Shown here in pieces: positions 14,585 to 37,937 of a DNA stretch of 64,000 nt. The stretch comes from a virus, in the IMG/VR virus record IMGVR_UViG_3300042731_011319, positions 45,723 to 109,722 of that record. One strand, given 5' to 3'. Each line of letters opens with the position of its first letter. The first letter of the stretch is position 1. The translations under genes were made by a program, and so were the position numbers. Under the pieces are notes generated by a model. That model was not told the DNA's origin. It did not search any database and saw nothing but the letters and a program-made list of their open reading frames with translations.

Positions 14585-15577
14585 TTAATATCCGTCAGAA
14601 TCATTACAATTCTGCATTTGATTATAAATCCATTCGTATGTTTTTTCAAGTCCATCTTCAAGAGTAATCGATGGAGCCCAGCCAAGAACTTCTTTGATCA
14701 TAGTATTGTCACTATTGCGGCCACGAACCCCCTGGGGTGCATCCAGATTATAGTTGCGTTTTAATTTAAGCCCAGCAATACCTTCAACAATATCAACAAG
14801 TTGATTGATTGAAACCATACGGTCGCTTCCAAGATTCAATGGGCGGGAGTCTCCCTTGTTCCACATTAGTTCCATGCCAGTAATGCAATCATCAATAAAC
14901 ATAAAAGAACGGGTCTGTTCGCCGTCTCCCCAAATTTCGATTTCATGCTTACCACTCATTTTAGCCTCAATAACTTTACGGCAGATTGCAGCAGGAGCTT
15001 TCTCTCTACCACCTCTCCATGTGCCGAAAGGTCCATAAACGTTATGGTAACGACAGGTGCGAGAATCAATATCAAAATCTTTTCCGTAATAGTAGGTGAT
15101 GAGTTCGCTAAATAACTTCTCCCATCCATAACCATCGTCTGGATTAGCTGGAAATACATCAGATTCTTTGAGGGCTTGAGACTCTTGGTCTTTAATTTCA
15201 GACTGAATTGCAGCAGGATAAACACAAGCAGTAGAGCTATAAAGAACTTCTTTTACTCCATTATCTCGTGCAGCCATCATCATATGAGTCTGGATAAGTA
15301 CATTTTCCATACAAAGGGCTTGGTTGTGCTCGACGAAACCCATGCCGCCCATATTACAAGCAAGGTTATAAATTCGGTCAACTCCAACACTTAGCTTATA
15401 GCAATGATTTTTTTCTTGGAGGTTACAATCAGGATGATTTTCGGCCGCGTCAAATGTCTGATACCACATATCTGCGGGCTTAATATCGGCCGCAATAACT
15501 TCGTGCCCTTGGGCCAATAAATCTTTAACTAAATAACCAGCAATAAAGCCGCCTGCTCCTCCAACTAGTATTTTCAT
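14585..15577 (-). CDS. GDP-mannose 3',5'-epimerase-like extended SDR
   Basis: GAGGFIA, NLACNMGGMGF, YGWEK, EKAPAAICRK, WGDGEQTRSF, GVRGRNSDN. Confidence 0.88.
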   Translation of the reverse strand: MKILVGGAGGFIAGYLVKDLLAQGHEVIAADIKPADMWYQTFDAAENHPDCNLQEKNHCYKLSVGVDRIYNLACNMGGMGFVEHNQALCMENVLIQTHMMMAARDNGVKEVLYSSTACVYPAAIQSEIKDQESQALKESDVFPANPDDGYGWEKLFSELITYYYGKDFDIDSRTCRYHNVYGPFGTWRGGREKAPAAICRKVIEAKMSGKHEIEIWGDGEQTRSFMFIDDCITGMELMWNKGDSRPLNLGSDRMVSINQLVDIVEGIAGLKLKRNYNLDAPQGVRGRNSDNTMIKEVLGWAPSITLEDGLEKTYEWIYNQMQNCNDSDGY

Positions 15578-16356
15578 TTTATATGTTTTTTTATAGTGTC
15601 ATCGAAATCTTCTAATTCACATTCTGCTTTATAATGGTTAAACCAAATTTCTTCATCATCTTTAAATGATTTAATCTTAGACCCATGAAACTTAGCACTA
15701 TGTATTGATAGCCTTTTAATTCTTTCTCGATCAGGAGGATTTATTAGCCATTTTTGTGATCCATCTAGATAAAGACCGCAATTTGAGTATATATCTCTTA
15801 CTGATTGATTTCTGATTCTTTGGGTATAGGTTTTACCGTAAAACTCAAAATAATTAAAACCGTTATTGTCTGAAATAAAATCTTGAATGGAATCGTGATT
15901 CCTTAATACCATATATTCGTCTGGGTCTATGTTTAGTATCCATGACTCAGGGCGTTGTAGCATATCCCAATACATTTTAACTTGACAAGAAGGGTGGCCA
16001 CTATTATGGTCAACCCCATAAACCCAGGGAACTTCATGTACATTGGGGTACTTTGATATAACTTCGTTAAATTTAGAAAGTATATCATCATCAGAAAAAT
16101 CATGGAAATAATCTAAATTAGGCTTGCAGCCCCATACCATTTTTTCTGGAGCAGTTCTTAAGGATTCCCTTCTTTCTAATTCTTCTTTTTTTATGTTTTT
16201 CCAATACGCGTTTTGGTCAGAAATGGAAGTTAGCCCATTATTATAAATGTATATTGAATTTATGCCCAAGCTTAAATGGTGATCTATCCATTCTTCTAAA
16301 AAGAAAACTTCTTTTCGAAGTAAAATTACTGCGCACAATGTAACTGAGTTATTCAT
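15574..16356 (-). CDS. glycosyltransferase, GT2-like/GT92
   Basis: EVFFLEEWIDHHLSLGI..IYIYNN; WILNIDPDEY. Confidence 0.75.
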   Translation of the reverse strand: MNNSVTLCAVILLRKEVFFLEEWIDHHLSLGINSIYIYNNGLTSISDQNAYWKNIKKEELERRESLRTAPEKMVWGCKPNLDYFHDFSDDDILSKFNEVISKYPNVHEVPWVYGVDHNSGHPSCQVKMYWDMLQRPESWILNIDPDEYMVLRNHDSIQDFISDNNGFNYFEFYGKTYTQRIRNQSVRDIYSNCGLYLDGSQKWLINPPDRERIKRLSIHSAKFHGSKIKSFKDDEEIWFNHYKAECELEDFDDTIKKHIK

Positions 16357-17179
16357 CTTTTATATTTTCTACCCAATAATTAAAGTCTAATGTTTTATAA
16401 TAAGGTTTTATTTTTTTAGATAATATATTATACTGTTCATTTAAGAAATTTTCAGTAATTTTTTGATAATCTTTTTGGTGATCTAAGAATAAAATTGGCA
16501 ATTCAGAGTGATCAAATTGATTATACATGGGATCTTTTATAACGATAGGTATGGCTCCACAATAAAGGGTGTCATAGAATCTAAACGAATCAGGCGCTGT
16601 ACCCCTGGGGCATATAACAAACTTACTCCTTCTTAATTTAATAAAAAAATCTTCATTAGACATAAACCAAGAGCGCTTTGAGCCATTAAGACCTCTTAGG
16701 CCAATATTTTCCAGGGTATAAATGGGGTTGTCTTTTATAAATAAATAAATAGCCTTTCGGATCCAGCTTGTATTTAATGAAAAGTTGCCGTAAACTAAAA
16801 TATCGCGATCCCTCTTTTGAGTACTTTTGTGAAAACAATCTCTTGCCCTAAAATCTCTGCCCATTGGAAGAAACTTAATAATGTCGTGAGTATAGTCGAC
16901 ATTATTGCAATAAATTTTTTTAATGTTATCAGGTATGTCTATATCTTTACTTAAGCAGCGATCTGTTTTGCCGCAAATAATTGAGTAAATAAATGGTTTT
17001 TTAGATATAGGTTCAAAATATTCAAGTATCTTTTGAGGGTTAAAGGTATGCCTATGGCTGCCAATAAAAATAATAGAATCTTGGTTTGGTATATCTTTGG
17101 CAGAGTTAACGGTAATAATACCGTTTTTTTTAAAAAAGGTTTCGTTAAATAAAAGCAGTATATCTTCCATTGGAAGCAT
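16349..17179 (-). CDS. exostosin (GT47)-like glycosyltransferase
   Basis: SKFVICPRGTAPDSFRFYDTLYCGAIPIV. Confidence 0.8.
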   Translation of the reverse strand: MLPMEDILLLFNETFFKKNGIITVNSAKDIPNQDSIIFIGSHRHTFNPQKILEYFEPISKKPFIYSIICGKTDRCLSKDIDIPDNIKKIYCNNVDYTHDIIKFLPMGRDFRARDCFHKSTQKRDRDILVYGNFSLNTSWIRKAIYLFIKDNPIYTLENIGLRGLNGSKRSWFMSNEDFFIKLRRSKFVICPRGTAPDSFRFYDTLYCGAIPIVIKDPMYNQFDHSELPILFLDHQKDYQKITENFLNEQYNILSKKIKPYYKTLDFNYWVENIKDE

Positions 17180-36373: not shown

Positions 36374-37299
36374 AGTTTTGTTACCTCCAAATCTTCATCT
36401 AATAAACCCCAATTATCGGGATTTGGGTTTTCAATCATTTTATTTCTTATATCGAGAGGGTTGACTTTTCTCTCTCCTTCTTGTTGGGCATGAGGCTGTG
36501 TAGAATCATTTGAGGCTCCATCGTTTCTGCCATGATATTGATGATAAAAATCTGCATCGATAGCTAAGCATAGATTATATATATCTTCACGTTGAGCGAT
36601 TCGGTTTAAAAATTCAGTATCCATGCTGTTCATATAGACGAGGTCTTCATTGAACCCTTTGTGTTCCAAGTAGCAGTCTCTGTCAACCATCATAACACCA
36701 ACAGCCCCACCATAAAAAGGAAAAACTTCTTCATTTGGCATTAGGCGGCTATAATGATTATGCTCATGACAGATCTCCACTTTTTTAGAAAGCTTCTGGT
36801 CATAGACAAAATCTCTGAATACAGAGTGATGAGATTGCTCTTCACTGAGATTGCGGCGACTAGAAAAAGCCGCTCGAGGCCAAGGCCAACCATAGTCTTT
36901 GACTTCATATTCATGATAAAACCAATCCATGAATCTCTGGCCAACTAATGTGTCTTGGTCGATGCGAGCAAAATGCTTGCCTTCTTGGTGCCTAAAACCA
37001 ACATTCATTGCATGAACTTCTGAAAACGGAGAGTCTCCTTGGTGCTTGTCTGCGATATCAGGTGGAACCGTAACGATTTTAAGTAAGCCTTGTACTTCTG
37101 GAGAAAACCTAGAAGATAAAGATTCTTTTAAAGAACCGCTTCTGGAACACCAGTCGACAAGAATTACTTCAGATTCATCGACTACATTATTTTTACGAAT
37201 GATTTCACAAGTATGGTTGACAGTATTAAGGCAACGACCAACAGAATCTCCATTGTAATTATCATTGCGAGACACTAAGATATAAGATATCCTTTTCAT
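36370..37299 (-). CDS. GT2-like glycosyltransferase
   Basis: VSRNDNYNG, ILVDW, AMNVG, IDQD, GFNE..MDTEF. Confidence 0.72.
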   Translation of the reverse strand: MKRISYILVSRNDNYNGDSVGRCLNTVNHTCEIIRKNNVVDESEVILVDWCSRSGSLKESLSSRFSPEVQGLLKIVTVPPDIADKHQGDSPFSEVHAMNVGFRHQEGKHFARIDQDTLVGQRFMDWFYHEYEVKDYGWPWPRAAFSSRRNLSEEQSHHSVFRDFVYDQKLSKKVEICHEHNHYSRLMPNEEVFPFYGGAVGVMMVDRDCYLEHKGFNEDLVYMNSMDTEFLNRIAQREDIYNLCLAIDADFYHQYHGRNDGASNDSTQPHAQQEGERKVNPLDIRNKMIENPNPDNWGLLDEDLEVTKL

Positions 37300-37937
37300 C
37301 TTTGGGGAACTAATCGCTTACAGTTAAAAGAGAATACCCTATTAGGATTGGGTACGGTTACTTGTATACCACCTATAGATTTTAGCATGTTAGAATAATA
37401 AGAGCCTGGTGTAGATATATGTTTCTCTAAATGCTTTAAGCAATGAAAGTTAATACTAGGGCGATATTCATCTTCGATGTTTAAATTATAAGTATTAGGA
37501 ACGATATAAAATATTTTATTCATCCAGTTAAATACATTATTTAATTCTAACATTATATCGTGAGAATCAGTTGCCACAAAGAAATTAGCCTTGCGGGAAT
37601 TGATCTGAACTTTGTTCATCTGAGCAATGTAAACATTAAGGTCTTGAACTTTTTCAGACTCCAATATAACCCCCCATGTTTTGTCTGTAATTCGTTTGTT
37701 TATTCTGATGATTTCTTCAATAGCTGGCTCTGGCATGGAACTCAAGCTGTGAATTTGGTTTGAGAATGCATATTCTTTGTATTCCATTTTTAATTTTGTT
37801 GTTTTTTGTTGATCTGTATAATATTTCAGTGATTGTTCGTATAAAAGTTCGCGGTCTAAGAAGTCTATTATTTCTTGACTCTTATTTTTATACACTTCAG
37901 AGACCGCGTTAAAAGTATTTTTAAATATTTTAAGCAT
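37296..37937 (-). CDS. hypothetical protein, degenerate fucosyltransferase-like; first large gene of the glycan island
   Basis: WGVIL...FFVATDS...STPGSYYS resemble GT-B FucT motifs. Confidence 0.5.
   Translation of the reverse strand: MLKIFKNTFNAVSEVYKNKSQEIIDFLDRELLYEQSLKYYTDQQKTTKLKMEYKEYAFSNQIHSLSSMPEPAIEEIIRINKRITDKTWGVILESEKVQDLNVYIAQMNKVQINSRKANFFVATDSHDIMLELNNVFNWMNKIFYIVPNTYNLNIEDEYRPSINFHCLKHLEKHISTPGSYYSNMLKSIGGIQVTVPNPNRVFSFNCKRLVPQR

Follow-up and report, generated by a model that had tools for sequence, protein, structure and literature searches.

What does a tailed phage make with some 23 kb of contiguous glycan-synthesis genes, and to what is the product attached? The question is raised by a 64,000-nucleotide stretch of DNA (the window; bases 45723-109722 of the single linear IMG/VR virus record IMGVR_UViG_3300042731_011319, which is 109,722 bp long, 81% complete according to CheckV, and derived from a wetland metagenome with partial matches in marine, estuary and biofilm sequencing runs). 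An island at 14585-37937 consists of exactly 30 adjoining minus-strand open reading frames (ORFs), most of which overlap or sit a few bases apart, so the run of contiguous co-oriented ORFs described in an initial annotation, made from the letters alone, is confirmed by the ORF listing. The common orientation is nothing special, since a longer block on the minus strand (2-47509) takes in the island together with replication and nucleotide-metabolism genes. The best explanation of its predicted gene content is that the island is an accessory, fast-changing block whose soluble enzymes would assemble a branched glycan in the cytoplasm.

By its predicted genes, the genome carrying the island is that of an uncultured large tailed phage, and not a cellular capsule or lipopolysaccharide (LPS) locus, the finding that was to have told against the initial annotation. 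The contig encodes tail-fibre proteins (PHROGs) with S74-type C-termini, a ClpB-like ATPase, a DNA methyltransferase, and replication genes (a split DnaE, DnaQ, a primase, DnaB, a RecA-like protein and ribonucleotide reductase, RNR), and syntenic relatives supply lambda-type minor tail proteins and RIIA/RIIB (G002) and TerL (G003). DnaE similarity places more than 570 IMG/VR stretches in the lineage, on contigs of up to 214 kb, and the closest cultured phage DnaE is at most 34% identical. Membership of the published 'moraphages' (PMC12619734) was rejected, as these have a family B polymerase and contractile tails.

Genes were assigned from Pfam gathering scores first, and two ORFs without a Pfam match (34053 and 31122; ORFs are named by their first coordinate, Table 1) were folded with AlphaFold2 (AF2) from alignments of their homologues. 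Twenty of the 30 island ORFs score above the gathering threshold: one short-chain dehydrogenase/reductase (SDR) epimerase, 13 glycosyltransferases (GTs), five Sulfotransfer_2 proteins and one methyltransferase. Two further GTs (19887, GT25; 22271, GT31) fall just under the cut-off. There are three groups of particular interest. First, the leftmost ORF is predicted from full-length similarity to be a GDP-mannose 3,5-epimerase (GME), as had been claimed, the match to GME structures being far better than that to the next sugar-epimerase family (E 1e-94 vs 6e-26). Second, all six sulfotransferases originally counted are recovered, five of them predicted by Pfam (31.8-62.8 bits vs a cut-off of 22), four of these five with an IHIPKxxGxS-type loop at residues ~10-20 for binding the 5′-phosphosulfate of 3′-phosphoadenosine-5′-phosphosulfate (PAPS). 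The sixth, 34053, is assigned from its PAPS-sulfotransferase fold: the model superimposes on TPST1 (VIA Z 11.2, root-mean-square deviation 3.9 Å over 189 residues) and its top 50 fold matches are all PAPS sulfotransferases. Its homologues form 28 clusters, 50-92% identical and none with source annotation, and three of them lie on record-sized contigs of lineage relatives (138,547, 192,131 and 210,818 bp). Third, three island genes are fucosyltransferase-like (18383, 31122 and 33169). The assignment of 31122 follows from its fold, which is matched by Foldseek to FUT8 (1e-6) and NodZ (3e-6) and also to POFUT1/2 and plant FUT1, and from an invariant HxRGxDK motif. Up to four such genes and two methyltransferases had been proposed; a GT10 and a second methyltransferase are on the contig but upstream of the window, leaving a single methyltransferase (17179) in the island.

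Seven island ORFs have no Pfam match (25103, 28570, 31122, 34053, 35522, 36370 and 37296), and profile searches gave no family match for 25103, 28570 or 37296, although a 'WLEDDWD' motif in 25103 suggests a GT-A fold. Comparison of the seven families with the assigned ones by hhalign yielded nothing usable (best 32% probability, 31122 vs GT11), and phmmer against PDB sequences found no match for 36370 or 34053. The nearest ESM Atlas clusters of 35522 are viral, with GT8 on 14% of members, and 36370 resembles viral GT2 clusters (ESM Atlas score 0.98, 199 shared features). The description of the island as nearly all glycan enzymes holds for most ORFs; it does not extend to the three without a family match, nor to 26689, a GHKL ATPase. 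This gene lies in the island's conserved core, with 71-82% identity to the complete copies in two relatives, and belongs to a broad family (at least 157 clusters, on contigs as long as 566 kb). No tie to glycan synthesis is apparent, and the protein might be a conflict-system ATPase or a chaperone; its only phmmer matches to PDB sequences, to glycinin, are spurious.

Further genes for donor supply lie elsewhere on the contig. Predicted gmd and fcl genes, placed about 8 kb away by the initial annotation, adjoin a third SDR at a distance of 7.6 kb from the island. Five more Sulfotransfer_2 genes (10 matches on the whole contig), a GT2+7C protein, a Fringe-like GT31, an RfaE-domain-II-like nucleotidyltransferase and a ManC-type cupin are encoded in the 45 kb that precede the window. 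The check for PAPS genes in the rest of the genome was productive: the same upstream region encodes an inorganic pyrophosphatase, CysQ (227 bits vs a cut-off of 229) and a fusion of adenosine-5′-phosphosulfate (APS) kinase with a HIGH-motif nucleotidyltransferase, which is a candidate for a compact PAPS synthase. The many sulfotransferases, together with the phage's own PAPS helper genes, point to a sulfated glycan under phage control.

The island proteins appear to be soluble. Transmembrane (TM) segments were sought with a 19-residue hydropathy scan and signal peptides with a 10-residue N-terminal hydropathy scan, and both agree with the earlier statement that the island has neither. No TM segment was found in the 30 proteins apart from a weak stretch at the N-terminus of 29031, where the start was probably called wrongly: the orthologues begin at an internal Met and do not have the stretch. 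No signal-peptide-like N-terminus was found in the island, whereas the same scan flags lipoprotein-type N-termini elsewhere on the contig. Nor is there machinery for export, a claim that had been made for the window and that now extends to the whole contig and three syntenic relatives (G001, G002 and G003; 106, 151 and 214 kb). Across these four sequences there is no profile match to the initiating transferase Bac_transf (PF02397) or to Wzx flippase (PF01943), ABC_tran gives only sub-threshold matches on non-transporters (the APS-kinase P-loop and a ClpB-like gene), and no protein has five or more TM segments, and hence there is no polytopic WecA-like candidate. The sole multi-TM protein of the contig (6396-7559, minus strand, 387 amino acids) has a loop of ~220 residues flanked by hydrophobic segments, three on the N-terminal side and one on the C-terminal side, matches neither Pfam nor PHROG families, and is 54-73% conserved across the three relatives; as it sits in the replication module, it is probably not a glycan exporter.

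We propose the following pathway. GDP-mannose would be diverted by Gmd and Fcl to GDP-L-fucose, and by the GME at the island edge to GDP-L-galactose or L-gulose. Some 18 to more than 20 GTs of many families, three of them fucosyltransferase-like, would extend a branched chain in the cytoplasm, which one methyltransferase (using S-adenosylmethionine) and six sulfotransferases (using PAPS) would tailor to an O-methylated, multiply sulfated form. The APS-kinase fusion, pyrophosphatase and CysQ would aid PAPS supply and removal of the 3′-phosphoadenosine-5′-phosphate by-product. The diversion of GDP-mannose, soluble assembly, methylation and PAPS-dependent sulfation are well supported by the predicted enzymes, and cytoplasmic assembly with its donor chemistry is well supported because genes for export and priming are missing from both the contig and its syntenic relatives. 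The original proposal of a sulfated, methylated fucose/L-galactose glycan built inside the cell thus stands as regards soluble enzymes, donor genes, PAPS helpers and the missing exporter, whereas the sugar chemistry of the product is what we infer.

The three relatives carry an island of 20-31 kb in the corresponding position, with the RecA-like module on one side and a DnaJ-like gene and RNR-beta on the other, and comparison separates two components. The first is a conserved frame, with 54-95% amino acid identity for most members: GME, the methyltransferase, sulfotransferase 17761, GT31-like 22271, GT2 23594, 25103, GT90, the ATPase, 28570, GT77 and sulfotransferase 31927, together with a right block composed of the NodZ-like gene, 34053, a sulfotransferase, 35522, 36370 and 37296. 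The exceptions are 25103, only 46% identical in G002, and 31927, which has no close orthologue in G001. The second consists of genes lost or replaced in at least one relative (GT47, GT11, HtrL, GT61, both GT32 genes, GT25, GT31 30493, 31122, sulfotransferase 32572 and 15574). This core-plus-cassette pattern resembles that of surface-glycan loci under diversifying selection. More widely, Sulfotransfer_2 is present in 18 of 22 relatives' records, with up to 11 copies per record, but distant near-complete relatives have few or no sulfotransferases and no GME, which marks the system as an accessory trait carried by a subclade. The CheckV rating of G002 as '100% complete' is doubtful; no capsid or terminase candidate was seen among its ORFs, of which only selected ones were scanned. 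The first 100 bases of G002 recur at position 231, where they form a short direct repeat in the 5′ end of an ORF of 2,238 amino acids and not a terminal repeat.

To what, then, is the glycan attached? By analogy with other viruses it could be built directly on phage proteins (fibres, capsid, tail) before or during assembly, giving an anionic sulfated coat; we prefer this reading to the others, with chances that are about even. Three considerations count for it: no priming, flipping or ligating function is encoded by the contig or the three relatives, a foreign glycan so large and multiply sulfated would make heavy demands on host flippases, and four of the enzyme families look phage-resident (below). 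Soluble, virus-encoded glycosylation of virions is established for giant viruses (PMC10117803 and PMC9614988) and for mycobacteriophages (Freeman 2023, as cited in PMC12619734). Several observations weigh against virion attachment. First, no Ser/Thr-rich tails or mucin-like segments occur in the proteins of the contig and three relatives, which is not decisive; the only match in the search for acceptor segments is the (PE)n/(PKPD)n linker of a membrane-anchored subtilase. Second, the island lies within the replication/nucleotide-metabolism block and outside the structural operon. Third, GT9-like, GT25, HtrL and RfaE-domain-II-like families are typical of LPS-core synthesis. Fourth, the system must be dispensable for this virion type, given the distant near-complete relatives that have no GME and are without most of the sulfotransferases. 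Finally, the missing exporter does not decide the target, because the bacterial O-antigen and lipooligosaccharide GTs that extend glycans linked to undecaprenyl diphosphate (Und-PP) or lipid A-core are soluble cytoplasmic proteins too, and export could be left to MsbA or to flippases of the host.

A second explanation, which we consider possible but distinctly less probable, is that the host envelope is remodelled. Soluble phage enzymes would extend and sulfate host lipid-linked intermediates at the cytoplasmic face (Und-PP-linked O-antigen, capsule or O-glycan units, or lipid A-core), and the host initiating transferase, flippase or MsbA, ligase and Lpt would display the altered glycan, so that superinfection is blocked or progeny are kept from sticking to debris. 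The missing TM segments, the LPS-type families and the position of the island among early/middle-type replication genes are compatible with this, and GT11 is up to 46% identical to Bacteroidota enzymes. The 'LPS/cell-wall modification' clusters that jumbo cyanophages carry, the nearest analogues in culture, are usually read in this way (PMC7824862, PMC12801897), and in cyanophages GME homologues with ~42% identity adjoin GTs and methyltransferases. However, priming, flipping, polymerising and ligating functions are absent even from the 214-kb relative, so every host membrane step would have to accept a large foreign polyanionic glycan. Sulfotransfer_2 is moreover unmatched in 14 control genomes, Bacteroides included, and four enzyme families look phage-specific: searches with 34053 and 31122 return only unannotated metagenome homologues, several on contigs that agree in length with those of lineage relatives, and the ESM Atlas clusters nearest to 35522 and 36370 are mostly or wholly viral. 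Such homologues argue for long residence in phages, and not for recent capture from a host surface-glycan locus.

It is unlikely that the product is left unattached, as a sulfated oligosaccharide or a glycolipid in soluble or released form (acting as a decoy, a signal or a matrix component), or that host cytoplasmic proteins are glycosylated. The sequence points to no acceptor, enzymes of the NodZ, methyltransferase and sulfotransferase types do tailor free oligosaccharides such as Nod factors, and the island is dispensable in distant relatives; but no backbone synthase for a free oligosaccharide was recognised, lysis would be the sole export route, and the investment in genes is very large for a by-product and has no phage precedent. 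Glycosylation of hydroxymethylated bases in phage DNA to evade restriction, which the initial annotation had allowed as an alternative attachment, is hardly credible, notwithstanding the replication genes beside the island and the multi-sugar chains that phage GTs can build on DNA (Pyle 2024, as cited in PMC12619734), since the thymidylate-synthase-like hydroxymethylase (PF00303), matched in control genomes, is unmatched in the contig and three relatives, no T4-type DNA glucosyltransferase family is among the Pfam matches, and the number of GTs and six sulfotransferases are far beyond known DNA systems.

The host is somewhat more probably a member of the Bacteroidota than of any other group, and the sequence gives no support to the original framing around Verrucomicrobia. 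Relatives fall into inconsistent metagenome-assembled genome bins (three Flavobacteriaceae and one Verrucomicrobiales, plus Cellvibrionales, Bacteriovoracaceae and even candidate phyla radiation or archaeal bins). Shine-Dalgarno sequences are not enriched upstream of starts (12% vs 10% background; whole contig, 135 ORFs), and leaders are A/T-rich; missing Shine-Dalgarno use is a usual trait of Bacteroidota and of the phages that infect them. The best identity of CysQ is 48% to genes of Bacteroidota and 41% to genes of Verrucomicrobiae. The roles of a shield and of a lure for the host's uptake machinery, suggested by the initial annotation, are speculative. One elaboration of the virion coat, which we rate as quite improbable, is that a fucan-like sulfated surface mimics algal polysaccharide and that the SusC/D-type machinery of polysaccharide-degrading Bacteroidota binds the particle as food. 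Diversification of the cassettes would then track host glycan-uptake specificities, in a form of 'Trojan horse' adsorption.

Table 1. Predicted genes of the island and associated glycan genes. Positions are those of the window unless marked as record positions; percentages are amino acid identities in the relatives unless stated otherwise.
Position	Strand	Predicted product	Basis and conservation
14585..15577	-	GDP-mannose 3,5-epimerase (GME), conserved left anchor	PDB 8sg0/2c59, E 1e-94, full length; 94-95% identical in G001-G003
15574..16356	-	GT-A (Glyco_tranf_2_4, weak GT92), variable cassette	Pfam; orthologue absent from G001-G002
16349..17179	-	Exostosin/GT47-like GT, variable	Pfam 35.2 bits vs cut-off 33.4; among relatives in G002 only
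17179..17757	-	S-adenosylmethionine methyltransferase (Methyltransf_24)	Pfam; 54-66% conserved
17761..18348	-	Sulfotransferase (Sulfotransfer_2)	E 3e-16; N-terminal IHIPKxxGxS PAPS-loop motif
18383..19201	-	GT11 alpha-1,2-fucosyltransferase-like, variable	E 3e-27; HVRRGDY motif; <=46% identical to Bacteroidota GT11
19183..19911	-	HtrL/YibB-like GT, variable	Pfam
19887..20654	-	GT25-like (sub-cut-off), variable	E 0.002
20656..21465	-	GT61-like GT, variable	E 5e-15
21471..22274	-	GT32 (Caps_synth, DXD), variable	E 6e-29
22271..22927	-	GT31-like, conserved	22.5 bits vs cut-off 23; paralogue of 30493 (same BLAST family)
22987..23616	-	Sulfotransferase (Sulfotransfer_2)	E 2e-7
23594..24391	-	GT2 + Glyco_transf_7C	E 3e-20; 58-77% conserved
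24400..25119	-	GT32 (Caps_synth), variable	E 7e-29
25103..25762	-	No family match, conserved	'WLEDDWD' motif
25755..26699	-	GT90 (CAP10/POGLUT-like)	E 7e-25; 82-85% identical in G002/G003
26689..28440	-	GHKL ATPase (HATPase_c_3), 583 amino acids, not a glycan enzyme	Pfam
28570..29043	-	Conserved protein of 157 amino acids, no family match	65-75% identical
29031..29813	-	GT77 (Nucleotid_trans)	E 1e-15
29879..30493	-	GT25	26.6 bits vs cut-off 24
30493..31125	-	GT31 (Galactosyl_T)	Pfam
31122..31898	-	Fucosyltransferase-fold protein (GT23/65/68-like), no Pfam match	AF2 pLDDT 92.5; Foldseek
31927..32568	-	Sulfotransferase (Sulfotransfer_2)	E 7e-17
32572..33168	-	Sulfotransferase (Sulfotransfer_2)	E 4e-10
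33169..34056	-	NodZ/GT23 alpha-1,6-fucosyltransferase-like, opens conserved right block	E 6.5e-16; 86-89% identical
34053..34853	-	Sixth sulfotransferase, lineage-restricted family, no Pfam match	AF2 pLDDT 86.9, fold only
34843..35529	-	Sulfotransferase (Sulfotransfer_2)	E 7e-14
35522..36373	-	Probable GT-A (weak GT8-like lead)	ESM Atlas; 'LLDLDMVV' DxD motif
36370..37299	-	Probable GT2-like GT	ESM Atlas
37296..37937	-	Conserved right anchor, no family match	70-87% identical
44620..45528	-	SDR nucleotide-sugar epimerase/dehydratase	Profile match
45537..46481	-	GDP-L-fucose synthase (fcl)	NCBIfam NF047922, 441.6 bits
46478..47509	-	GDP-mannose 4,6-dehydratase (gmd)	TIGR01472, 313 bits; Pfam E 3.5e-101
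48694..49779	+	GT-B (Glycos_transf_1-like), lineage-conserved plus-strand operon	Pfam
51222..53138	+	GT-B + DUF4214, 638 amino acids	Pfam
53135..54334	+	GT9-like domain protein	Pfam E 1e-7, partial match
record 30783-31697	+	APS-kinase + HIGH-motif nucleotidyltransferase fusion	85-93% identical across relatives

Beyond the island, a plus-strand operon (47680-55100) contains a single-stranded-DNA-binding-protein-like gene, two GT-B genes, the GT9-like protein and small proteins without assignment. It is kept at 50-77% in G002 and G003, abuts tail genes in relatives (the tail operon of G003 ends convergent with it), and could be a second, lineage-wide glycosylation module. Its GT-B genes and 53135 have no phmmer match among PDB sequences, so that search lends no support to 53135 being a TibC/AAH-type protein heptosyltransferase.

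Several other features of the contig are notable. Two tail-fibre-like paralogues (window 4681-6372, minus strand, and record 34729-36435; 563 and 568 amino acids) have near-identical N-termini and diverge downstream. The window copy, together with a P4H-type 2OG-Fe(II) oxygenase beside it (4085-4675, minus strand) and a neighbour of 271 amino acids, forms an insertion not present in G001-G003. In the subtilase (40812-42038, minus strand), a TM anchor comes after a long linker of (PE)n type, or (PKPD)n in G001, and the combination of this proline-rich stalk with a prolyl-hydroxylase-like enzyme is reminiscent of the hydroxyproline glycoproteins of chloroviruses and plants. At the right end of the window, a protein of 830 amino acids with RCC1 repeats and a C-terminal FGE-sulfatase (SUMF1-like) domain (55136-57628, minus strand) adjoins one of more than 2,041 amino acids with RCC1 and InlB-B-repeat domains that continues past the contig end (57625-64000, minus strand). 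Both sit where relatives have tail-tip/host-specificity genes, and are not conserved there.

Large glycan clusters of marine phages have been known since 2005 and are functionally unexplained. The jumbo T4-like cyanophages (P-SSM2, S-SSM7, S-SCSM1/2R; PMC7824862, PMC12801897) share with this lineage polymorphic clusters of GTs, nucleoside-diphosphate-sugar epimerases and methyltransferases, including the GME homologues, but the phage described here has DnaE/DnaQ/DnaB replication and lambda-type minor tail proteins and is not T4-like (Kyanoviridae). It differs as well in scale, with ~18 to more than 20 GTs in the island alone as compared with 13, possibly the highest number in a marine phage (PMC12801897), and in sulfation, as the cyanophage clusters are described without it (PMC7824862) and that of S-SSM7 has no annotated sulfotransferase. 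Bacterial Wzx/Wzy or ABC O-antigen and capsule loci likewise have a core with variable cassettes, soluble GT2, GT11, GT25 and GT32 enzymes and a GDP-fucose supply by gmd/fcl; in contrast to these, the island is in a phage context and is without an initiating phosphoglycosyl transferase, flippase, polymerase, chain-length regulator or ABC transporter.

Two viral systems bear on the virion coat. Giant-virus glycosylation (PBCV-1 capsid glycans and Megavirinae fibril clusters; PMC9614988, PMC10117803) shares soluble virus GTs without membrane anchors, virus-encoded nucleotide sugars (gmd and fcl in chloroviruses), methyltransferases and clade-variable clusters of many GT families. No sequence-level orthology was seen, however, and the system described here belongs to a tailed phage of a bacterial host and adds sulfotransferases and PAPS helper genes. 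Virion O-glycosylation in mycobacteriophages (Che8, Corndog, Myrna; Freeman et al. 2023, as relayed by citing papers) is the only experimentally shown phage precedent, with cytoplasmic phage GTs, no exporter, and capsid and tail targets. It involves few GTs and no sulfation, and its acceptors are the C-terminal tails of capsid and tail-tube proteins, a kind of tail that was not seen here. As for sulfation in phages, among 50,697 phage records Sulfotransfer_2 gives weak matches in phiRSL1 and DLP_6 only, phage sulfotransferases come up one at a time and what they do is called unclear (PMC10580990), and no paper on a phage sulfated-glycan system was found in the searchable literature.

The lineage has the largest GT set that we found for a phage, as many as 11 sulfotransferases, and PAPS helper genes of its own, and under either target reading the conserved block offers concrete enzymes for study. 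If the glycan coats the virion, it would alter how phage particles are expected to encounter hosts, grazers, mucus and marine gels; remodelling of the host surface, on the other hand, would amount to an unusually elaborate strategy of superinfection control or defence. Should the coat prove to be an algal mimic, glycan-mediated adsorption would be a principle of host recognition new for phages.

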